Shown: in pieces, positions 1-13,087 of the stretch
How positions within the stretch are numbered: position 1 is the stretch's first letter
Layout of the letters: the number at the start of each line of letters is the position of its first letter
Translations under genes and position numbers: made by a program
The notes under the pieces: generated by a model
What the model saw: the letters and a program-made list of their open reading frames with translations, nothing else
What the model was told of the DNA's origin: nothing
Database searches by the model: none
DNA from: an uncultured Methanomicrobiales archaeon
GTDB lineage: Archaea > Halobacteriota > Methanomicrobia > Methanomicrobiales > Methanospirillaceae
Reading direction: 5' to 3'
Length of the DNA: 64,000 nt
Assembly: GCA_963697895.1 (NCBI GenBank)
Contig: OY969100.1
Span: 64,001-128,000, forward strand

Positions 1-351
1 CATTGACTCCCGGCGTTCAACGGTCGAACCGGTTCCACGTGAAGATCATTTATCCGATCATTGAGTAAGAGAGCGGGGATAATATATGATAAGCAGTTCA
101 TCAAGGCGCCCGAACCATCGGCGGCTGACCTATAATCAGCGTATTTTGCAGGTTTCCATATGTATGCGGGGGTATAATTCACGAACGACACGGGGCCGGC
201 GGTGCGGTTATCATGACGATTTATAGGCGTTAATCCCCGGTTCATTTCCTATCCCGGTGTGCGTGAGAAGAAATCTTCCTCCTGTTCTTCCCTTCTCAAT
301 CCGCGTGACTATTTATACCACAACGCCAATTCCTCTCTGTAGAGGTATATC

Positions 352-1694
352 ATGCACATTTACTGGCTCTTTACCCGCGGCCTGGTCCTGATGCTCCTCG
401 CCTGCGGGCTCTTCGGGATCGCAGCCGCACAGATCGGCGGGGACACCGGGTACTTCGATATCACGTCGAACCCGTCGGGTGCGTCGGTCACCTTTGACGG
501 GTCGTACCGGGGAACGACCCCGGTCACCGTCCCGGTCCTGGTCACCGCCGATCCCTCCCACACGATCTCGCTGACCAAGTCGGGCTATCAGCCCTGGTCG
601 GATACCTACGAGGGGAACCCGGAGGCGGGAGATACGATCACGATCAACGCCGACCTGATCTTCATCCCGGTCACCCAGCCGACCACCCAGATCGGGGGCG
701 GTAAGGGGTACTATCAGATCTCCTCCTCGCCGCAGGGGGGGAACGTCTACTTTGACGGCGCGTACCAGGGGACCGCCCCGGTGACCGTCCAGGTCTCGTC
801 ATCGGGCACCCCGGGCCACACGATCCAGGTCACCCTCTCCGGGTACCAGAGCTGGTCCCAGAACTACCCGGGCAACCCGGCGGACGGCCAGACGGTGTAC
901 GTGACCGCCTACCTGACCCCGATCGCGACCTACGGGAGCATCTCGGTCTCTTCGAATCCTTCGCAGGCGACGGCTGTCCTTGACGGCAGCCAGTCCCTGC
1001 TGACCCCGGCGACCTTCAACAACGTCCTCCCCGGCACCCACACGATCATGGTGAGCAAGTCCGGGTACTCGACGTCCTCCCGGACGGTCTCGGTCTCGGC
1101 GGGAAGCAACACGCCGGTCTCGGTGACGCTCAGCCAGCTCCCCCGAACACGGGAAGTATCTACATGGTGACGAACCCCCAGGGGGCCGCGGCCTACGTGG
1201 ACGGGACGTACTACGGGATGACCCCGGCGCTTGCACCCGGCCTTTCGGCCGGCACCCACCAGGTCCGGCTCTCCCTCTCCGGTTTCCAGGACTACCTGGG
1301 GATTACCACTGTCGTGGGCGGCCAGACGACCACGGTGACGCAGACGCTCGTCGTCGCGCCGACCGGCACCCCGACCCCGACCCAGTCTCCGGGCACCGGA
1401 TCGATCGCGGTCTCCTCTGTCCCGGGCGGGGCCTCGGTCTTCCTCGATAACGCCTATGTCGGGATCAGCCCGCTCACCATCCCCTCGGTCCAGCCCGGCT
1501 CCCATGTCGTCACGATCACGCAGACCGGGTACCAGAACTACGAGATGACCGTGACGGTCCAGGGCGGCCAGACGGCCCAGGTCTCGGCAACGCTCACGCC
1601 GGTCACCTCGCCGACCCCCACCCAGGGGAGCCTGCCCGCGATCGTCGCGGTCATCGGGCTTCTCGCGGTCGCGGTGCTGGCGAGGAGAAAATAA
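352..1694 (+). CDS. PEGA-domain cell-surface protein, split by one frameshift near 1140-1150
   Basis: Signal peptide and repeated PEGA motifs (SNPSGASVTFDG..GTTP; TNPQGAAAYVDG; SVPGGASVFLDN). C-terminus is TPT linker + hydrophobic helix + RRK. ORFs 352-1170 and 1164-1694 join if one C is added to the C-run at ~1140. Confidence 0.85.
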
Positions 1695-1695
1695 C

Positions 1696-1703
1696 TTTTT
1701 TTT
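1696..1703 (+). terminator. Oligo-T archaeal terminator candidate
   Basis: T8 run immediately after the stop codon at 1694. Confidence 0.45.
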
Positions 1704-1826
1704 AACGATACCGGGGATATGTCTGCAATGAGGCTGTTCGTGTATCAGAAGTGAACAGCGGCATCATGCCTGGTTTATGGGAAATCTACTGGACTTAGTT
1801 CAATTATTTTAAAGAAGGGAGGCATT

Positions 1827-2060
1827 ATGAAAAATAAGAATACTATCAACGTATCGAAAGAGAAACGGGACGATATGGTCTCGGCAATACAGAATTATTT
1901 TTTAACGGAAAGAGAAGAAGAGATCGGTGATCTGGCTGCAGGCTTCATGTTAACATTTATCATGGAAGAACTGGCACCGGAATTTTACAATCAGGGGGTG
2001 TATGACTCGTATGTCTGTATGAGAGACATGACTGAAGATTTACTGTCGATCCAAAAATAA
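1827..2060 (+). CDS. DUF2164 family protein
   Basis: IQNYFLTEREEEIGDLAAGFML..I.EELAPEFYNQG matches my recollection of DUF2164; GGAGG RBS upstream. Confidence 0.8.
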   Translation: MKNKNTINVSKEKRDDMVSAIQNYFLTEREEEIGDLAAGFMLTFIMEELAPEFYNQGVYDSYVCMRDMTEDLLSIQK

Positions 2061-2292
2061 GTGGGTACTGCATAGTTTTCATGTTCCGATCTCAAGATCG
2101 AACCTTTTGTATCAGAGAGAAGCTTTCATCGGAACAGTCCGGTCCGATGCAACCGGGACACTCTCCTTTTCACAACGATTATGTGCGGTCACCGGGAAAT
2201 AATAAGACTATGCGGGGGGACTGTTCATATCTCCGGATATTATCCCCGGTCCGATCCGTTCCCGCGGGATGGAGATCGAATCAGGTGATACC

Positions 2293-3558
2293 ATGCAGAT
2301 TGCGGTGATTGGAACCGGGTATGTCGGAGCGGTAACCGGGGCGTGCCTGGCGGAACTCGGGCACGAGATCCTGTTCGTCGGACGGAATACGCAGAAACTC
2401 GACCTGATCCGTTCGGGAAAGAGCCCCATATTCGAACCGGGGCTGGAGCAGTTGTTAGAGAAGAACCGGCAGAGGATCAGGACAACGACGGATCTCTCCG
2501 AAGCGGTGAAGCAGTCCGAACTCACGTTCATCTGCGTGGGGACACCGTCGCAGGACGATGGATCGATCGATCTGTCGCAGGTACGGGAGGTGTCGGGGAC
2601 GATCGGGAAAAGCCTGGGCGAGGATGATACGCGCCATACGATCATTGTCAAAAGCACGGTGCTCCCCGGTACCACCGAGACGCTGGTGATCCCTGTTCTC
2701 GAGAAAGAATCCGGCAAAAAAGCGTACGTGGACTTTGGGATCGCCTCTAACCCGGAATTTTTAAAAGAGGGGACAGCGGTAGAGGATTTTTTCCATACCG
2801 ACCGGGTGGTGATCGGCGCCAACGACCAGAAGACGCGCGATGTAGTGGAAAAGGTGTACCGGCCCCTCCACGTGCCCATCTTTATCACGGCGATCCGCAC
2901 CTCGGAGATGATCAAGTACACGAGCAACGCGTTCCTCGCGACCAAGATCAGTTTTGCGAACGAGATCGGAAACCTCTGCAAGAAGATGGGGATCGACAGC
3001 TATGCGGTCTTCGCCGGGGTCGGCCTCGATACGCGGATCAGCCCGCATTTCTTCCGCTCCGGGATCGGGTTTGGCGGGTCGTGTTTCCCGAAAGACGTCC
3101 GTGCACTGATCGCCCATTCCCGGGCGCTCGGGGTGGAACCGCGGATCCTCGATGCGGTGATGGAAACGAACGAGGACCAGCCTGCCGCGATGATCGAACT
3201 CCTGAAGCGGCATATGGATCTCCCGGGAAAGACGATCGGGGTGCTCGGCCTGGCGTTCAAACCGGAGAGCGATGATATCCGGGAGAGCAGGGCGGTCCCG
3301 GTCATCGAGGCGCTCCTCGTGGAGGGGGCGGAGATCGTCGCCTACGATCCGGTCGCGATGGATAATTTCCGGCGGATCTTTCCCGGCATCCGGTATGCCG
3401 GAACCGCGGAGGAGGTCCTCCATGCGGATGCAATCCTTATCGTCACGGAGTGGAAGGAGTTTTCGTCCCTGGATTACCACGGGAAGATCGTGATCGATGG
3501 CCGGAGAATAGAAAAAGCCCAGAAGGAAGCGGCGGTGTACGAGGGGATCTGCTGGTGA
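2293..3558 (+). CDS. ugd: UDP-glucose/GDP-mannose 6-dehydrogenase family protein
   Basis: GTGYVG, ICVGTP, KSTV.PGT, NPEFLKEG, GFGGSCFPKD and LGLAFKP..DD.RES motifs. Confidence 0.93.
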   Translation: MQIAVIGTGYVGAVTGACLAELGHEILFVGRNTQKLDLIRSGKSPIFEPGLEQLLEKNRQRIRTTTDLSEAVKQSELTFICVGTPSQDDGSIDLSQVREVSGTIGKSLGEDDTRHTIIVKSTVLPGTTETLVIPVLEKESGKKAYVDFGIASNPEFLKEGTAVEDFFHTDRVVIGANDQKTRDVVEKVYRPLHVPIFITAIRTSEMIKYTSNAFLATKISFANEIGNLCKKMGIDSYAVFAGVGLDTRISPHFFRSGIGFGGSCFPKDVRALIAHSRALGVEPRILDAVMETNEDQPAAMIELLKRHMDLPGKTIGVLGLAFKPESDDIRESRAVPVIEALLVEGAEIVAYDPVAMDNFRRIFPGIRYAGTAEEVLHADAILIVTEWKEFSSLDYHGKIVIDGRRIEKAQKEAAVYEGICW

Positions 3559-3896: not shown

Positions 3897-4755
3897 AGCG
3901 GTGATCCCGGCCGCCGGGCTCGGGACCCGGTTCCTTCCGGTGACGAAATCGATGCCGAAGGAGATGCTCCCGATCATCAGCAAACCGGTCATCCATTACG
4001 TGGTCGAGGAGGCGATACAGTCGGGGATCGAGGATATCATCATCATCACCGGCCGGGGGAAGCGGGCGATCGAGGACTATTTCGATGACGCCCCGGAGCT
4101 GGCGATGTACCTCCGGTCCCGGAAAAAGGATGAGATGCTCCGGTGCCTGGAAGATGTCTCGCAGTTCTGCGGCATCCATTACATCCGGCAGCGGGAGCCC
4201 CGGGGGCTCGGGGACGCGATCCTCTGTGCGGAACGGCACTGCGGCGGGGAACCCTTCGCGGTGCTCCTCGGCGACGACATCATGAAGGATACCACGCCGT
4301 GCATCGGGCAGATGATCCCGTACTTCGAGAGGCAGAAAGATTCGGTCATCGCGATCCAGGAGATCCCGGTCGAGAAACTGTCGCGGTACGGGATTGTGAA
4401 GGGGACGATGGTCGGGGAGAACCTCATGCAGCTGGAGGACATCGTCGAAAAACCCCGCCCCGAAGAGGCTCCTTCCCGCTGTGCCGCGATCGGGCGGTAC
4501 CTGTTCGTCCCTGAGTTGTTCGACTGCCTGAAGGATACGACACCGGGAGTCGGCGGGGAGATCCAGCTGACGGACGCGATCAAGCTGCTGATAAAACGGC
4601 ATCCGGTCTACGGGTACCTGTTCCGGGGACACCGGTTCGACACCGGCGATAAATGGGGATATATCGAGACGATCCTCCATTACGCCCGGGAGGATCCGCA
4701 GATCCGGCCGCTGCTGGAAGAATATCTGAAAAATATGTGCACAGATCTTCGTTGA
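3883..4755 (+). CDS. galU: UTP-glucose-1-phosphate uridylyltransferase
   Basis: AVIPAAGLGTRFLPVTKSMPKEMLP, RQREPRGLGDA, IVEKP, GEIQLTDA. Confidence 0.95.
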   Translation: MKVQTAVIPAAGLGTRFLPVTKSMPKEMLPIISKPVIHYVVEEAIQSGIEDIIIITGRGKRAIEDYFDDAPELAMYLRSRKKDEMLRCLEDVSQFCGIHYIRQREPRGLGDAILCAERHCGGEPFAVLLGDDIMKDTTPCIGQMIPYFERQKDSVIAIQEIPVEKLSRYGIVKGTMVGENLMQLEDIVEKPRPEEAPSRCAAIGRYLFVPELFDCLKDTTPGVGGEIQLTDAIKLLIKRHPVYGYLFRGHRFDTGDKWGYIETILHYAREDPQIRPLLEEYLKNMCTDLR

Positions 4756-4887
4756 CAGGGAAAGAGAGGGCAATCCTTCCTGGCACCATTTTCCAGAAAT
4801 CTCTCCCGGAATCCGGATACTGGCCTCTTATCCGGAAGTCGGGAAATCTGCGATATCCTGAAGAATCTCATCCGATGAGTCTTCCAG

Positions 4888-5178
4888 TCAAATCCTGCCG
4901 TATTTTTTATGGGCCTGCCCTATTGTCATGATATCATGGATCCGGACGAGATTGGCCCCGCTATCGATCGTATAAAAGGCGGTATAGCTTCTCCCGATAT
5001 GAAGCCGGTATACGGCTATCCCCTCTTTAAGCTGGAGTTTCTCTTTATCGCCACCTATACCGGGATAGGGGTTCTCCTCAAGGGTCATGAGTGCATCGTG
5101 AATTATTCGACGAGTTTTTTCCGGCAGCTCATTGATCGATTCGACCAGATGTCGTTTGATACATACACGGTATGTCAC
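4888..5178 (-). CDS. RelE/ParE-family toxin
   Basis: 96 aa with LEENPYPG..GDKEKL and YRLHIGRSYTAFYTID; 4-nt overlap with the upstream small gene. Confidence 0.8.
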   Translation of the reverse strand: MTYRVCIKRHLVESINELPEKTRRIIHDALMTLEENPYPGIGGDKEKLQLKEGIAVYRLHIGRSYTAFYTIDSGANLVRIHDIMTIGQAHKKYGRI

Positions 5179-5369
5179 ACCTTTATCTCCGACAGCGGTA
5201 CAAAATCGTTTTCATCCATCGAACGCTCGATGTCTTCCATGAGGCGATGTTTCTTTTTCTGGTCAATCATCTCGGCAAGAAGGTCGTTATAGGTCTGGCC
5301 CGCGGATCGCATCTCTGCGAGTTCCTTCCAGACCTGTTCGGTGACCGGTATTCTTTTGGGGAGATTCAT
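5175..5369 (-). CDS. Antitoxin of the RelE pair (small DNA-binding protein)
   Basis: 64 aa, KRIPVTEQVWKEL..GQTYNDLL, acidic C-terminus; coupled to the RelE gene. Confidence 0.75.
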   Translation of the reverse strand: MNLPKRIPVTEQVWKELAEMRSAGQTYNDLLAEMIDQKKKHRLMEDIERSMDENDFVPLSEIKV

Positions 5370-5494
5370 GGTACATATTGTAAACATGATACATATTTAA
5401 AACTTGTAACCAGGCACCCCTGCCGATATCCCGTTCGATGGGATAAGGTTCGGGTCGCGAAGGTGTCGACGATGCGATCGGGCGATAAAAAAAG

Positions 5495-6032
5495 TTAGCC
5501 CCCCGCGAGGGGAGCGGGGTTCGTCCCGCGGGAAGTCGCGGGTATTCGAGGTTCGTCCGGGGGTTCGTGGATTCCGGGTGCATCGAGTCCCGGACTCCCC
5601 GCAGCGTTGACACCCGGTTCGTCCTTATCCCCTGTTCGTACCGATCCACTATCAGGGATCGGTCCGGAGATCCCGTCTTCCGGATCTTCGCCTTCTTCTT
5701 CGACGATCTCTTCGATCGTTCCGGGATAAGATCCGGTACCGGTGCCATCCCCGGTGGGGTCCCCGGGCCCAGAGTTCTCTTGAGATCTCCGGGAATATCG
5801 CGATCCCCCGGAGTTCGGCGATCTCCGCTGCGCAGGAATAGAGGATCTCCTTCGGGTCGTACCGTGCATACCGGAGCCTCCGCACCCGGACGATGGTGGT
5901 TAAATGCCGGGAGGAGATGATGAAGTCGAATGCGGTATAATCCACCGCGAGCGGGATCACTTCGTACCCCCGGTCCCCGGCGGCGTGGATCGCTTCCTGG
6001 ATCGCCACCTGTGGCTGCCGCCCGCGGGTCAT
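5495..6032 (-). CDS. Hjc-like / restriction-endonuclease-fold protein (degenerate), frameshift near 5725
   Basis: MTRGRQP..EA...RGYEV..FDFIIS..TIVRVRR..ELWARGP..WHRYRIL; removing one base continues into PGTIEEI and an acidic tail ending at 5495. ATGA overlap with the upstream gene. Confidence 0.6.
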
Positions 6033-6997
6033 CCGGCCTCGCCGCGTGCGGTTCCGGGGACGGACTGCAGCTCCACCGGCGGTGTCTCCTTCCCGGTTTT
6101 CGGGACGGATTGGTAGAACGGCATCTCTGTTGATGGCTTCTCCTCTCCGGTTTTCGGGATGTTCCGCGGGAACGGTACCTCCACGGACGGCGTCTCCTCT
6201 CCGGTTTTCGGGATGTTCCGCGGGAACGGTACCTCCACGGACGGCGTCTCCTCTCCGGTTTTCGGGATGTTCCGCGGGAACGGTACCTCCACGGAAAGGG
6301 GTTCCGAACTCTCTTTTCGTCCCCATTCACGCCGGATACGCCGGATCCCGCCGGGGAGCACCTCGTAACAGTGGCACCCGTCAGGCGGGCAGAAGATCCA
6401 GGCCTCCTTCCGGACGACCGCGGGACTTCCGATATCCCTGAGGCAGGCGAGCCCGTCGCGGTACCGGAGGAAGACGGCGTGTGCATCGGGTACGGGCTGC
6501 TTCGAGCGGCGGACCATGACGAGGAGGATCTCGTCTGTCCGGACCGCGATGAGGTCCGGGGGAGACGGGTACCCCTGCCACCGGCTGACGATCCACCCGT
6601 CCTGCCTCAGGCGGTAGCACGCCTCGTACTCGCCGTCGCACCCCTTCCGGTAGCGGACACGGTCGGGCTCCGGGCCCGGGCGCCGTCCGCCAGGGAGGGC
6701 GAGGGGATCCTTATTCGGGTTCCGTACCGGATCCACCGGATCGGATACCTGGATTGAGAGGGGGTCGTGCGGTGGATTCTGCTCAGGGTCCTCCCTTCTC
6801 TCAGGACCGGATATCTGTGGGGAGAGCGGATCCTTCTCCGGGGAGAAAGTCGACTGCTCCGGGAGAATATTCTGTATTCGTTCCGGTTTCCGGTCCTGCA
6901 CAGGGAGGGGATCTGCAGAGCTCCCATTCGATGCGGGGGAGCCGGAGTCCTGGTCCGGTTTGACCAGCTCCGTTCGTTCTTCGATCTCGGTTGTCAT
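6029..6997 (-). CDS. Hjc-like PD-(D/E)xK-fold protein with disordered N-terminus and repeat tail
   Basis: YRKGCDGEYEACYRLRQDGWIVSR..PPDLIAV..ILLVMVRR aligns by eye with the archaeal Hjc N-terminus (YRKG..ERE....L...G..V.R....D..A......IEVK). Confidence 0.7.
   Translation of the reverse strand: MTTEIEERTELVKPDQDSGSPASNGSSADPLPVQDRKPERIQNILPEQSTFSPEKDPLSPQISGPERREDPEQNPPHDPLSIQVSDPVDPVRNPNKDPLALPGGRRPGPEPDRVRYRKGCDGEYEACYRLRQDGWIVSRWQGYPSPPDLIAVRTDEILLVMVRRSKQPVPDAHAVFLRYRDGLACLRDIGSPAVVRKEAWIFCPPDGCHCYEVLPGGIRRIRREWGRKESSEPLSVEVPFPRNIPKTGEETPSVEVPFPRNIPKTGEETPSVEVPFPRNIPKTGEEKPSTEMPFYQSVPKTGKETPPVELQSVPGTARGEAG
6087..6295 (-). repeat. 54-bp coding tandem repeat (18 aa SVEVPFPRNIPKTGEETP), 3 copies + 1 degenerate
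   Basis: TCCTCTCCGG starts at 6141, 6195 and 6249; a diverged copy starts near 6087. Confidence 0.95.
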
Positions 6998-7009
6998 CTC
7001 GATCACTTT

Positions 7010-7410
7010 TTTTCATTCGGTCTGTCTTCAACAACAATTCGGGAAATTGCAGAGCATTCGCTCACGGTTTCAACGATTGTGCCGGAGACAAAACCCGTGC
7101 ACGGCTCGCCGAATCAGACACGGGAGCGTTCAGGAGTTGTTGTCAGCGGGCACCCGGGGCGCCGGCCGTCATCGTTGGCGGAAAAAGAGGAGGGTACGGG
7201 GTGAAAAAATTCGAACAGGGAATGGGATCCTGTAGTGAGGCCCCATCCCCGTCTGCTGCATCGCCGGCCGGGGTCGGTACACCCCGGTCAGCAGGTCCAC
7301 CACGAGACAGGTCCGCTCGATGACGGTGACGATCGCCGTCTGAAAACGCGGCGATGGTACCACCGTTCGCACCGTCCTGACCAGTTTCGTGAGGAAATTC
7401 CGGATCATTG
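7010..7410 (-). other. Hairpin-rich leader: candidate structured RNA and/or 79-aa leader ORF (7169-7408)
   Basis: Several inverted repeats (see findings); promoter-like sequence at ~7430-7450. Confidence 0.4.
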
Positions 7411-7427
7411 CTGTGCATAAAAGTCAA

Positions 7428-7452
7428 TAATTTAAGGGATAAACCTTGCGGT
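7428..7452 (-). promoter_or_regulatory. Putative BRE/TATA promoter for the leader and Hjc-like genes
   Basis: Minus strand reads CGCAAGGTTTATCCCTTAAATTA, ~25-35 nt upstream of the ATG at 7408. Confidence 0.4.
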
Positions 7453-7709
7453 CTCACAGGGAAAAAAACGTGCAATGCGCCGGAAATTCTCGTATTGCGC
7501 GACGATCCATCGACCTTCAGGGGATCGCGCAGCGATGAGATGGGAAATCCCGGAAAGAACGGGGAAAATTAGGGGAAACAGGAAGCCTGGGCAGGAGGTG
7601 CGGCAGCGTGGAGCCCACGGGTACGGGTGCGTACCGCTGGAAACGGACTTCTCGGAAGGACGTACGGAATCCGCAAAATATATTATAATATATTCAAATA
7701 TGGTACACT

Positions 7710-7961
7710 ATGCCAAGGTCCGTTGAGCGGGAAACCACAACCATCGTCGTTCCGAGAGATTTAAAAACAGAGCTCGATCTCCTCAAGGTGCACCCACGGG
7801 AGACCTATGCAGAGATCATCAGGCGATTGATTGACTGTTCCTATGATACGGAACCTTTGAGCCCCGAGACCATTCAGGCGATCGAAGACGGTCTTGATGC
7901 GATCAAGCGGGGAGAAACCTACAGCCTCGATGAGGTGATGCGGGAGATCGGGGTGGAATGA
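7710..7961 (+). CDS. Antitoxin (archaeal small DNA-binding type)
   Basis: TTIVVP..LK.ELD.LK.HPRETYAEIIRRL...EPLS.ET..AIEDGL..IKRGETYSLDEV; ATGA overlap with RelE. Confidence 0.8.
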   Translation: MPRSVERETTTIVVPRDLKTELDLLKVHPRETYAEIIRRLIDCSYDTEPLSPETIQAIEDGLDAIKRGETYSLDEVMREIGVE

Positions 7962-8225
7962 GGTACCAGATTCGAATCCTCCCCCATGCCCGACGAGCCT
8001 CTTTCTTCTCTTCCGATCAATGCCGCTCGGAGAATCGGAGGAGCTCTCCAGGATCTTGCAGAGGAACAGGATCCTCAATCCTGCGTAAAGCGGTTACGGG
8101 GACACCCGGCCTTATTCAGTCTCAGGGTCGGGGAGTACCGGGTGATCCTCTCTATCGATCGGGGGATCCTGGTAATCTTCGTGATCGATGCCGGAGACCG
8201 GAGAACCGTATACCGAAAGCTTTGA
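7958..8225 (+). CDS. RelE/StbE-family toxin, frameshift near 8000
   Basis: MRYQIRILPHARRA then (other frame) LSSLP..AARRI..L..L...VKRLRG..LFSLRVGEYRVILSID. Confidence 0.8.
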
Positions 8226-8476
8226 TCCACTCATTTTTCATCCTGAATCAGATGATTCCCTCTGATATTTATCTAAGGATTATCCCCGGGGTGTTCCGGT
8301 TGCCGGGATCTTCGACGTATGAAGAGTGCTGAAACGAATGATGACATTTTTTTATGAATCATAGGACACCCGCGAACCCTCTCTTATTCTGCTCGCGTGA
8401 AACACATCCATGTTGCCGGGATCCGGCTGATTAACGCCCGATCCATTGATCTATCATGACGGGATCCCCTGCCCTG

Positions 8477-8977
8477 CCGGTTGGTTATGCCTCCTCGATC
8501 TGCCTCCCGGGTATTTCCTGCTATTAAGCACCTTTTTATCCGGATTATAACCCGTATTTTCGAAAAATATCCGATAAAACCGGTATTTTTCCGGTTCGTG
8601 TCCACGGGATCCCTGTTACCCGGAGAATGGGATCGTATTTCCCGGAAACGGAGTCCGGACAAGGGGTTATTCAGGTACGGGGGAGATGCATTCATTGTCC
8701 CGAAATACTCTCAGGACGGGGAAAAAACCGGCTCATATCGCCCGATCCCCTGGGGATTCCCGGCACGATCGGCTACCTGTCCGGCCGGTTGTGCCTCCCT
8801 GTTCTTCCTCCCGGGTATTTCCTGCCATTAAGCACCTTTTCATCCGGATAAAAACCGCTCTTTCCGGAGATAAAGGGATAATATTGCCTTTATTGAGTAC
8901 GGTGTTCAGGAATTCTTCCGGATGCGGAAAGTCATCCGGAATTCCGGGAAAATACGGCCGGTTCAGGGTTATTCAGG
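8477..8977. repeat. ~303-bp-period degenerate duplication with a 43-bp conserved core (8503-8545 / 8807-8849)
   Basis: CCTCCCGGGTATTTCCTGCyATTAAGCACCTTTTyATCCGGAT occurs twice (2 mismatches); GGGTTATTCAGG at 8664 and 8966. Confidence 0.85.
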
Positions 8978-9486
8978 CAATAAATACCTGCGATCTCTGG
9001 TTCCGGTATGGAGGAGCGGACCGTTCGGATCCTGTTCCCGTGTCTGCCCACCTGTCTGGCTGATATTCCCGTTTTTGCCATTTAACGGGTCGGCGCATAG
9101 GGATCATCCCGAAGACATTCCTTTCCGGAGTATATACCGTCGGGCGGGGAAGGGTCAGGGGAGGTATCAGCTCTCCTCCTGCCTGGAGGAAAGGATGCAT
9201 CTTCCTGGTGCGGTATGGATCAGAATACGCGTATTAACCAGCTGGTATAAATTCTGGGCGGGAACTACCTGATCAAGGAACGGCCTATCTCTGGGATCGG
9301 GCGAACCTCTTATCCGGAAGACCAGGAACCTGGGGCTCTTTCCGATCCAGCGGGGATATATCCCGCTATGGTCACGCGGGGAAAGCCGGTCGGGGAGATC
9401 AGCCCGAAGTGCCCTCCCGGCAAAGGTATCGACCGAAATACGCCGATCTATGGGTCAGCGAATTTTTCCACCCGTTGCGAGAGCCT

Positions 9487-10608
9487 ATGATTGCCATCAT
9501 CCTTGGTACACGCCCGGAGATCATCAAGATGTCACCGATCATCCGGGAATGCGAGCGGACGCATCGCGACTATTTCATCCTCCACACCGGCCAGCACTAC
9601 TCGTACGAGCTCGACAGGCTCAACTTCGACGAGCTCGAACTGCCCCACCCGAAGTACAACCTGGACGTCGAATCCGGGACCCACGCGTTCCAGACCGGCG
9701 CGATGCTGATCGGGACCGAGGTCTTCCTCTCGGAGGAGAAGCCCGACGTCGTCCTCGTCCAGGGAGACACGAACACCGCCCTCGCCGGGGCGCTCGCCGC
9801 AGCCAAGCTCCGGATCCCGGTCGGCCACGTGGAGGCCGGCCTCCGGAGCTTTGAGCCGAAGGTGCCCGAAGAGATCAACCGGGTGGTCGTCGACCACGTC
9901 TCCGACTACCTCTTCGCCCCGACCGCGATGGCATGCGCCAACCTCGAAAATGAAGGCATCCCGGTGGACCGGATCCGGCTCACCGGGAACACGATCGTCG
10001 ACGCCGTCCGCGAGAACCTGGCGATCGCGCAGAGACGGCCGAGTTTCCTCGCGACCCTCGGGCTCATCCCGCAGGAGTACATCCTCGCGACGGCCCACCG
10101 GGAGGAGAACGTCGACAACCCCGCCCGTCTCGCCGGGATCATCAGGGGTCTCCAGCTGATCGGGAAGAACGCCGACCTGCCGGTCATATCGCCGGTCCAT
10201 CCCCGGACCGCGAGGATCATCGCGGAGTCCCGGATCGACACGGACGGGATCACGCTGATCAAGCCGGTCGGCTTCCTGGAGTTTTTGCAGCTCGAGTCGC
10301 AGGCCCGCCTCGTCCTCACCGACTCGGGCGGCGTCCAGGAGGAGGCCTGCATCCTCGGCGTCCCCTGCGTCACGTTCCGGGAGCGGACCGAGCGGCCCGA
10401 GACGGTCCTCGCCGGCGCGAACGTGGTCGTCGGGACGAACCCCCAGGACATCTTTTACGGGGCGTACATGATGATGGACGCAAAGCCCGGGTGGGAACAG
10501 CCGTTCGGGGACGGGCATGCCGCAAGGAGGATCGTAAAGATCTGCGGGAACGTGAGGTACAACGACGAGCTGGAACGGGAGTGGGATAAGAGAGCGGGGG
10601 AAGGATAA
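9487..10608 (+). CDS. wecB: UDP-N-acetylglucosamine 2-epimerase (non-hydrolysing), copy 1
   Basis: GTRPEIIK, HTGQHY, VQGDT, HVEAGLRS, TAHREEN, TDSGGVQEE, TERPE. Confidence 0.93.
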   Translation: MIAIILGTRPEIIKMSPIIRECERTHRDYFILHTGQHYSYELDRLNFDELELPHPKYNLDVESGTHAFQTGAMLIGTEVFLSEEKPDVVLVQGDTNTALAGALAAAKLRIPVGHVEAGLRSFEPKVPEEINRVVVDHVSDYLFAPTAMACANLENEGIPVDRIRLTGNTIVDAVRENLAIAQRRPSFLATLGLIPQEYILATAHREENVDNPARLAGIIRGLQLIGKNADLPVISPVHPRTARIIAESRIDTDGITLIKPVGFLEFLQLESQARLVLTDSGGVQEEACILGVPCVTFRERTERPETVLAGANVVVGTNPQDIFYGAYMMMDAKPGWEQPFGDGHAARRIVKICGNVRYNDELEREWDKRAGEG

Positions 10609-11263: not shown

Positions 11264-11968
11264 TTCCCTCAGCGGATCTCAGACAAATCTTCTGGTTGTC
11301 CACAGCCGTTATAATACTACGGGCAGAGGGGCGGAGTGCCAGGGTGAATGCTCGGGGAAAGAAGGAACAGGAACTGGGATAGCATTTCCCGGACCTGAAA
11401 AATAGGAAAAGAGGGAAGATCCCGTCCAGGCAATATTCCGGTATTCTTTCATGAAAAAAACACGGTCGCATATTCATCGTCCCGGTATCTTTTCATCAGT
11501 ACCACCGGCTCATATTCATCGTCCCGGTGAACGTTCCTGTGAGAAATGTATAAGTGAGGGTGGGGAAGAATACCCTGTTGAAGATGGGTGGCACGCGGGG
11601 AAGGAGGAGCTGCACTCCCGCGTACGAATGGGGACCTCTTCCTGTCGTTGTGTCTGATGCATGCCATACGGGTACTCTCCGGGATAACCGGTGCAATCAA
11701 TACGCCCGGGCAATAACCATCCGGCATCACAGAGGGCATCTTCAGGTCGGCCGAACCGTATCCGGATCGTAATCTTCCGAAAATCTGCGGAAACCGTGCG
11801 GGTCTTGCCTGATCCGTTCGGGGATATCACCCGTGGTATACCCGCGAAAAAAGGCGGCCAGGGAGATCATCCTGAAGAACCCTCCCATAGGGAGGATCCC
11901 GGTTATCGAGTACGCCCATCGAAGGGATCCACCGTGATCCCTGTTAGTTCCATGGGTAGCGATACACT

Positions 11969-13087
11969 ATGATTGCAATCATTCTGGGAACACGCCCGGA
12001 GATCATCAAGATGTCCCCGATCATCCGGGAATGCGAGCGAAAGCATCGCGACTACTTCATCCTCCACACGGGCCAGCACTACTCGTACGACATGGATAAG
12101 ATCTTCTTCGACGAGCTCGAACTTCCCCACCCGAAATACAACCTCGACGTCGGCTCCGGGACCCACGCGGTCCAGACCGGCGCGATCATGGCCGGGACCG
12201 AGAAGGTCCTCGGAGACGAGAAGCCCGATATCGTCCTCGTCCAGGGGGACACGAACACGGTCGTCGCCGGGGCGCTCGCCGCCGCCAAGCTCCACATCAA
12301 GGTCGGGCACGTGGAGGCAGGCCTCCGGTCCTTCGACCGGACGATGCCCGAGGAGATCAACCGGGTCGTCGCCGACCACATTGCCGACTACCTCTTCGCG
12401 CCGACCGAGCTCGCCCGGCAGAACCTCGAGAAGGAAGGGATCCCCGAGAACCAGATCACGGTCACCGGGAACACGATCGTCGACGCCCTCCACGAGAACC
12501 TCACGATCGCCGGGAAGCGGAAGAGCATCCTCCAGGCCCTCGGCCTCAAACCGAAGGAGTACCTCCTCGCGACCGCCCACCGGCAGGAGAACGTCGACGA
12601 CCCCGCGCACCTCGCCGGGATCATCGCGGGCCTCAAGAAGGTACAGAAGTTTTCCGGCATGCCGCTCGTCTACCCGGTCCACCCCCGGGCAGAGAAGAAG
12701 ATCGCGGAGTTCGGCATCGACACCGACGGTCTCACAATGATCAAGCCGGTCGGGTTCCTAGAGTTTTTGCAGCTCGAGTCCCAGGCCCGGCTCGTCCTCA
12801 CCGACTCGGGCGGCGTCCAGGAGGAGACCTGCATCCTCGGCGTCCCCTGCGTCACCCTCCGCGAGAACACCGAGCGGCCCGAGACGGTCCAGGTCCGGGC
12901 AAACGTCCTCGTGGGGACGAACCCCGACGACATCTGCCAGGGGGCCGCCATGATGATGGACGCGGAGCCCGACTGGGAGAACCCGTTTGGCGACGGGTAC
13001 GCGGGAAGGATGATCGTCCAGATCAGCGAGAGTGTGAGGTATAACCGTGGGGCGTGTGGGAAGCGGGTTGGGGAAGAGGGAGGGTGA
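11969..13087 (+). CDS. wecB: UDP-N-acetylglucosamine 2-epimerase (non-hydrolysing), copy 2
   Basis: Same motifs as copy 1; close paralog. Confidence 0.95.
   Translation: MIAIILGTRPEIIKMSPIIRECERKHRDYFILHTGQHYSYDMDKIFFDELELPHPKYNLDVGSGTHAVQTGAIMAGTEKVLGDEKPDIVLVQGDTNTVVAGALAAAKLHIKVGHVEAGLRSFDRTMPEEINRVVADHIADYLFAPTELARQNLEKEGIPENQITVTGNTIVDALHENLTIAGKRKSILQALGLKPKEYLLATAHRQENVDDPAHLAGIIAGLKKVQKFSGMPLVYPVHPRAEKKIAEFGIDTDGLTMIKPVGFLEFLQLESQARLVLTDSGGVQEETCILGVPCVTLRENTERPETVQVRANVLVGTNPDDICQGAAMMMDAEPDWENPFGDGYAGRMIVQISESVRYNRGACGKRVGEEGG

Follow-up and report, generated by a model that had tools for sequence, protein, structure and literature searches.

Catalytically dead partners of junction nucleases are familiar from ERCC1/XPF, Eme1/Mus81 and the structural subunits of archaeal splicing endonucleases, where the protein has lost its active site but retains the nuclease fold to bind branched nucleic acid. 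On archaeal plasmids of the pRN1 type, a small DNA-binding or copy-control gene is co-transcribed with the primase-helicase replicase. Here we compare such systems with two neighboring genes, A and B, on the minus strand of a 64,000-nucleotide stretch from an uncultured Methanomicrobiales archaeon (the window; positions 64,001 to 128,000 of contig OY969100.1, with coordinates below given as window positions). Their closest described relatives are the archaeal Holliday junction resolvases Hjc and Hje, and two studies report E9, D33, E46 and K48 of Hjc as essential for catalysis (PMC10956419; PMC1913061). That A and B encode Hjc-fold proteins without the catalytic motif, belonging to a lineage-specific, cassette-borne family linked to a primase-helicase, is well supported. 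We also lean, less firmly, toward a fuller reading: A and B would be diverged members of an unannotated, lineage-specific, Hjc-derived family of non-cutting binders carried in small replicon-type cassettes, and the window would hold a replicase-less, partly decayed variant.

Standard models do not recognize these proteins. A, B and a small upstream protein, S, were scanned with Pfam, NCBIfam, PHROGs and PADLOC, and the small neighboring proteins with Pfam, PHROGs and PADLOC; nothing above noise was found for A, B or S. Neither A nor B had a Pfam match at E ≤ 1, and neither alone reached the gathering score of Hjc (PF01870). The NCBIfam model PRK14676 (UPF0102) matched A at E = 0.085, and A', a paralog from the same genome, scored 18.2 bits against PF01870, with a cut-off of 21.1. 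At the level of profiles, five A-type cores placed Hjc structures at ranks 1 to 4 in the PDB (1gef, E = 0.01), and a 104-row family profile matched Pyrococcus furiosus Hjc (1gef) over residues 2 to 94 at E = 9.6e-13, with Hjc, Hje or ST1444 making up eight of its nine PDB matches and a UPF0102 protein the ninth. An AlphaFold2 model of the A core (predicted local distance difference test, pLDDT, 92.2) has the restriction-endonuclease-like alpha/beta fold of Hjc: ranks 1 to 12 of its Foldseek matches are all archaeal junction resolvases (Hjc, Hje and ST1444; E 3.9e-5 to 1.1e-4, template modeling score 0.51 to 0.65), with splicing endonucleases among the weaker matches (3ajv, 5x89).

Remote members carry the likeness further. 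Among 148 remote representatives, 44 matched Pfam Hjc at E ≤ 0.001 and 37 lay above its cut-off. A and B are ~24 to 28% identical; B aligned with the A profile in hhalign at 90% probability (E = 1.5e-6), and in hidden Markov model (HMM) searches each profile found the other's proteins at 1e-5 to 1e-20. The homology to Hjc and Hje (PF01870; PDB 1gef, 1hh1, 2wcw, 1ob8) covers the whole domain of ~100 residues, from the N-terminal YRKG..E helix through the PD strand to the last strands, which is where a C-terminal "E.W...G.H.Y" motif falls. A sequence-only reading of this DNA, made from the letters and open reading frame (ORF) translations, had assigned both genes to an Hjc-like nuclease fold, an assignment these searches bear out, and the peptides it quoted from A are present in the gene as delimited here.

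What both proteins lack is the catalytic E...PD...ExK motif of Hjc. Alignments to 1gef place E126, D151, M164 and R166 of A at the positions of E9, D33, E46 and K48, and I11 (from hhalign), D36, R49 and R51 of B at the same positions; A keeps the equivalents of E9 and D33, B only the Asp. ExK is thus replaced by M-V-R in A and by R-V-R in B, an alteration the sequence-only reading had already recognized. In the 104-row alignment the E46 column holds Q in 53 rows, R in 14, M in 13 and E in a single row, and ExK occurs in none of the 14 members linked to a replicase. A and B depart from Hjc and Hje in lacking ExK, in the missing E9 equivalent of B and in their long disordered or repeat extensions. 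ERCC1- and Eme1-type partners act beside an active paralog, whereas here both neighbors lack the motif. An ExK-type Hjc was not found in the window's genome with PF01870, which retrieved only A', or with two ExK-type Hjc-like queries from related genomes, a result that is no proof of absence; PF01870 reached its cut-off in only 21 of 61 genomes of the order sample.

Loss of the motif has not meant loss of constraint. The ratio of nonsynonymous to synonymous change (dN/dS) is 0.14 to 0.60 in 13 pairs of cores, and the proteins must therefore do something. The core of A is intact and, compared with its relatives, gives 0.31 to 0.38, as expected under purifying selection.

Hjc and Hje are single housekeeping genes, whereas this family is multi-copy, confined to one lineage and carried in cassettes. 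A word-index search returned only 4 proteins for A and 12 for B, and the family looked tiny; an exhaustive HMMER search replaced that small count with 237 cluster representatives at E ≤ 0.001. Of 401 genomes sampled across the order, 173 contain a match to the B profile. In the window's own family 171 of 220 genomes are positive; a second family has 1 positive genome among 20, and four further families have none among 160. The matches number at least 873, and many genomes hold at least 10. The A profile at E ≤ 1e-15 is found in 46 of 228 genomes of the window's family, and scans of sequence collections with it gave two metagenome loci, one genome locus and no viral locus. All members are named "hypothetical protein" in their sources, from Methanoregulaceae, Methanoregula, Methanolinea or Methanomicrobiales. 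The family has no model in Pfam, NCBIfam, PHROG or PADLOC, and it was not found in the open-access literature searched, including a paper on primases of mobile genetic elements (PMC5862659). The window's own genome has three members (A, B and A') and two S genes.

Gene order provides the second line of evidence. We compared 68 distinct places with a family member, 29 of them found with the A profile and 29 with the B profile, most with flanks of 1.5 kb. An HMM of S matches at 16 of these places, and in every case S precedes the Hjc-like gene. The 12 S ORFs listed are 76 to 88 residues long, with conserved MIR.F starts and FF..R ends, and in B-type cassettes S has a dN/dS of 0.10 to 0.45 with an excess of third-position changes, a mark of purifying selection. 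The Hjc-like gene would be the signature of small cassettes in which it comes third, after S (~80 residues) and a protein that is disordered or small. At the paralog locus in the window's genome (L005) the order is S', N', A' and then a 1,241-residue protein, P0007, with N' a separate ORF resembling the disordered N terminus of A; this N-terminal part is likewise a separate ORF overlapping the core gene in the paralog and in locus L008. The order S-N-A-replicase recurs in L007, a sediment contig, and in L106, a complete genome. Stop and start codons overlap between N and the Hjc-like gene in L106 and between the Hjc-like gene and the large gene in both.

In 14 of the 68 places (12 of the 29 A-profile places, none of the 29 B-profile places) the Hjc-like gene is immediately followed by a homolog of P0007. 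Domain matches in the large proteins include D5_N (E = 1.1e-33) and DUF5906 (E = 2.2e-10) in L107 and D5_N (E = 1.2e-18) in L055. P0007 itself has no Pfam match and against the PDB gave only a touch at Walker A; a language-model look-up of the large protein's N terminus pointed to RepB/AEP primases, which is a lead only. We read the large protein as a probable primase-helicase replicase. In the A-type branch, a large D5-type primase-helicase gene placed directly next, with overlapping codons, would make the arrangement that of a small replicon of plasmid or virus type in integrated form. The resemblance to pRN1-type elements lies in a small gene, translationally coupled and directly upstream of a primase-helicase, in an element of 6 to 8 kb; the differences are that pRN1-type plasmids use a ribbon-helix-helix protein where a nuclease fold is found here, that the elements here are chromosomal, with no free plasmid form seen (no search aimed at circular forms was made), and that the window copy has no replicase. 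Two IMG/VR contigs also encode relatives of the large protein, and there the start of its gene is overlapped by a gene for an ERCC4 nuclease. One of these contigs, L094, resembles the cassettes in having a nuclease-superfamily gene directly upstream of a related replicase and differs in that the nuclease is of the ERCC4 family, the contig is tailed-virus-like and no A/B family member is present.

These observations are consistent with a model in which the Hjc fold was kept while A and B lost the catalytic motif, leaving proteins that would bind DNA, either in a structure-specific way or as a double strand, and would not cut it. Rather than resolving junctions, these proteins would help to control or initiate replication or expression of the element. 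More tentatively, and as a possibility we would not put on the same footing, the cassettes may define a hitherto undescribed class of small plasmid-like elements that integrate into the genomes of Methanoregulaceae-type methanogens; in these, a nuclease-dead Hjc dimer would take the place of a helix-turn-helix or ribbon-helix-helix protein as the DNA-recognition partner of the D5-type primase-helicase, S would possibly be a third component, and the many replicase-less cassettes would be non-autonomous or domesticated derivatives. Such a dimer could, for example, bind a cruciform or branched origin. Repeats that might act as iterons were considered as a general feature and rejected, since only 8 of 61 loci have repeats of period ≥12 in coding tails. 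Tandem arrays of a 46-nt repeat (7 to 8 copies) lie ~0.8 to 1.1 kb from Hjc-like genes at L057 (297 to 684) and L059 (2616 to 2942), in two genomes of one genus, and might be iterons.

In the window, the minus strand reads S, A, B, an antitoxin-like gene and a ParE-type toxin gene (Table 1). No P0007 homolog is present in the first 12 kb, and the window copy is therefore a replicase-less variant. Within the proposed model, B would stand in the replicase position, truncated by a frameshift and followed on the same strand by a ParE-type toxin-antitoxin (TA) pair. The sequence-only reading took A and B, whose ATG and TGA do overlap as ATGA at 6029 to 6032, for a two-protein module. As a conserved unit this did not survive comparison: tandem family genes are found in 2 of the 68 places, the window (A and B) and L047 (two B-type genes, 35% identical), and the A-B junction persists only in metagenome contigs that are ~90% identical to the window, which also preserve the S-A link. 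The pair is therefore a young, local arrangement and not a conserved two-protein system. Homologs otherwise occur singly, as that reading had said would count against it, but the upstream element, on which it had also staked its case, is conserved at the 16 places with S.

Table 1. Positions of features at the S-A-B locus of the window and at two loci compared with it
Feature	Position	Strand	Basis or remark
TATA-like A/T-rich box TTAAATTA	7428..7435	-	~23 nt before the ATG of S, read from sequence
S, small conserved ORF, 79 aa (MIRNF...FFRQR)	7169..7408	-	ORF and HMM of S
S-A spacer with short predicted hairpin just after the S stop codon	7007..7168	-	RNAalifold, not established
Gene A	6029..7006	-	GTG at 7006 (325 aa), ATG at 6997 (322 aa)
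A, N-terminal disordered part	6659-7006	-	part of gene A
A, Hjc-fold core	6329-6658	-	residues 117-226 of A
A, repeat-rich tail	6032-6328	-	part of gene A
Perfect 54-nt tandem repeat, 2.9 copies, coding for SVEVPFPRNIPKTGEETP units in the A tail	6139..6295	-	
Gene B as sequenced, 126 aa: Hjc-fold core and out-of-frame Arg-rich end	5652..6032	-	
Net +1-base frameshift site in B	5720..5728	-	comparison with homologs and metagenome contigs
Original B continuation, +1 frame (PGTIEEIVEEEGEDPEDG...APLAGG): last fold strand and acidic tail	5495..5727	-	
Terminator-like GC hairpin and T-run	5488..5515	-	consensus match only; overlaps stop of full-length B frame
Antitoxin-like gene (VapB/DUF7557-like)	5175..5387	-	below Pfam cut-offs; downstream of B, same strand
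ParE/RelE-fold toxin gene	4888..5178	-	ParE_toxin (PF05016) 23.5 bits, cut-off 23
DUF7557 antitoxin-like gene	7710..7961	+	29.7 bits, cut-off 25
ParE-like toxin gene	7986..8225	+	ParE_toxin 20.5 bits, below cut-off 23
27-nt imperfect direct repeat, left copy	4824..4850		81% identical to right copy, first 15 nt identical
27-nt imperfect direct repeat, right copy	9306..9332		may be chance match
Second cassette of the same genome	L005 5804-11388 (G000:C1, ~1,069.8-1,075.4 kb)		A' with 48-nt tandem repeats
ERCC4-family nuclease gene and D5-type primase-helicase gene	L094 7528-8067 and 8031-10562		IMG/VR contig

The B gene as sequenced stops at 5652 after an Arg-rich end. Its pattern EA..RGYEV..FDFII..IVRVRR is in frame, as the sequence-only reading had it, and the rest of the motif reported there is divided by a frameshift: the "LPG.IE.." last strand and the acidic, Pro-rich tail are encoded in the +1 frame, by an ORF spanning 5495 to 5869. 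Disordered extensions had been ascribed to both proteins; the one in A stands, while that of B is not part of B as sequenced. Seven of 11 B homologs are 159 to 182 residues long and in frame, and the tail of one of the homologs, P0009, is nearly identical to the window's +1 frame. Contigs that are ~90% identical, from three marsh-metagenome runs, have a G inserted behind 5720 and two bases absent at 5726, one base fewer than the window, and the shift is therefore peculiar to this genome. Either B is truly truncated or the assembly is wrong at this point; B in this genome is probably impaired. The repeat stretch in the tail of A also differs in the metagenome relatives (joint 6051 to 6322).

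The locus occupies an islet of 4.5 kb between a UTP-glucose-1-phosphate uridylyltransferase-like ORF and a UDP-GlcNAc 2-epimerase-like ORF, names that we read from the translations. The sequence-only reading had noted TA pairs on both sides and seen in them the setting of an accessory islet, and both points hold: each flank has a ParE/RelE-type toxin gene with a small antitoxin gene. The left pair has the features of a type II system, with a ParE_toxin match above the cut-off and a small antitoxin gene immediately before the toxin gene in the same orientation. The 27-nt repeats around the islet could be an insertion scar or a chance match; in an attempted empty-site comparison, the nearest relatives were only ~72% identical in the islet-flanking gene. 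Between the second TA pair and the epimerase gene lies a 1.1-kb stretch without a convincing ORF that contains 146-nt direct repeats at 8432 to 8577 and 8736 to 8881 (72% identical), and part of this stretch has a 69%-identical copy elsewhere in the genome (G000:C1:1485514-1485765). The epimerase-like gene itself (9409 to 10608) has a second copy at ~11948 to 13045 with 82% identical DNA, marking a duplicated glycan-gene region.

Elsewhere, too, the family's cassettes are short islets between housekeeping or sugar-nucleotide genes, with PIN, HicB, ParE, nucleotidyltransferase and also TIR-STAND genes as neighbors. In L031 and L043 a B-type gene is succeeded, in the same orientation, by homologs of the window's TA proteins; in L031 the antitoxin homolog (E = 2.2e-31) has the same position after the B-type gene. 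The second cassette of the window's genome adjoins a low-GC island (30 to 40%) with EcoRII-C and C5-cytosine methylase genes. Beside the intact element of S, N, Hjc-like gene and replicase in L106, a low-GC stretch (727 to 3426) encodes a 900-residue TIR and STAND-NTPase protein. Next to the L007 cassette are three low-GC-looking genes on the opposite strand (3 to 3007); read by eye, one resembles a Dam-type adenine methylase and one is a P-loop ATPase.

The upstream stretch, 7007 to 7452 (446 nt), was described in the sequence-only reading as a long structured leader. It is indeed conserved, in the form of the 79-codon ORF S; its standing as an RNA is weaker. Rfam gave no match at E ≤ 1 on either strand from 4500 to 9500, and the fold of the 446 nt has a z-score of -1.99, a value matched by one in 100 shuffled sequences. 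Four A-type upstream regions share a conserved hairpin (GUGCUGACCGGG...CCGG.CGGCA), whose RNAalifold covariation term of -2.06 comes from these four sequences, too few to decide. The TATA-like box suggests a leaderless S transcript, and three other A-type loci have A/T-rich stretches at an equal distance before S in the alignment. AlphaFold2 models S as a helical hairpin at low confidence (pLDDT 62.5), too uncertain for a structure search.

Several observations weigh against the reading of A and B as non-cutting binders in replicon-type cassettes. The DNA binding and the link to replication that it proposes are deduced from fold and gene order. At none of the 29 B-type places does a replicase appear within the 1.5 kb fetched, and for these the replicon reading would rest on the shared architecture, with S upstream. 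Among the four A-type copies, S has a dN/dS of 0.7 to 1.3, showing no purifying selection, and its conservation there is blockwise at the DNA level. Around the elements examined, no tRNA target, integrase (by Pfam hits) or clear att site was found, only the 27-nt imperfect repeat. The frameshifts could be assembly errors. Among the sequencing runs searched, none carries this strain across the site in B (best share of words 0.19), two short contigs that are 100% identical to the window do not reach it, and no RNA data set was listed for 5450 to 7450. Asp is retained in 86 of 104 rows and Glu in 74 of 104, together with Lys or Arg, and the family may therefore still include a non-canonical active site.

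One alternative is that the locus in this genome is a dead remnant of an integrated element. The shift in B removes the last strand, the first 12 kb of the window contain no replicase, the A-type S genes have a dN/dS of ~1 and the genome has only three family members. Moreover, the replicase gene of the only other copy in the genome, that of P0007, is also frameshifted, its true N terminus being an ORF at 9234 to 9572 of L005 in another frame. Set against such decay are the intact core of A with its low dN/dS, the maintenance of S-A-B at ~90% identity in other samples and the possibility that the frameshift in B arose in assembly, and we consider a wholly dead locus unlikely.

Somewhat less probable still is that the family's proteins are nucleases that still cleave, through a non-canonical site (E-D-QxK or a derivative of it), and that the S-x-Hjc-like cassette is a defense or addiction module. 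E-D-QxK is the commonest family pattern (42 of 104 rows), Glu, Asp and Lys or Arg remain in most members, many copies occur per genome, and the cassettes lie among TA, PIN, HicB and TIR-STAND genes in variable islands, all of which speaks for such a module. Yet B-type proteins lack three of the four catalytic positions and A-type proteins lack the E46 equivalent and have Arg for K48, PADLOC matched none of the 10 proteins submitted (S, A, B and neighbors), and the tight coupling to a primase-helicase seen at 14 places is more in keeping with a replicon than with a defense system.

We give little credence to the idea that A and B form a dedicated heteromeric, non-catalytic module acting on branched nucleic acid, possibly RNA from the upstream 400 nt, because although the genes overlap, their junction is kept in close relatives, Hjc-fold proteins are dimers and the upstream hairpin and fold score lend it some color, the only other tandem is of two B-type genes, A-type genes are usually followed by a replicase and B-type genes stand alone, the upstream stretch carries a conserved ORF and has neither an Rfam match nor decisive covariation, and B is frameshifted in this genome. 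A predicted complex of the A and B cores scored 0.07 (mark 0.32) in a run without controls and is evidence neither way.

If the reading of A and B as diverged, non-cutting members of an Hjc-derived cassette family is true, one family of methanogens would have converted a junction-resolvase fold into a DNA binder that does not cut, and would have expanded it to at least 10 copies per genome. For an uncharted part of the methanogen mobilome, the protein family would provide a marker gene together with a conserved operon order and an associated primase-helicase, and its QxK, MxR, RxR and KxE variants would form a natural set of active-site states for the Hjc fold after the loss of cutting. It would also account for hundreds of genes now annotated as encoding hypothetical proteins, and small islets in glycosylation and TA regions of these genomes may come to be recognized as remnants of such elements.

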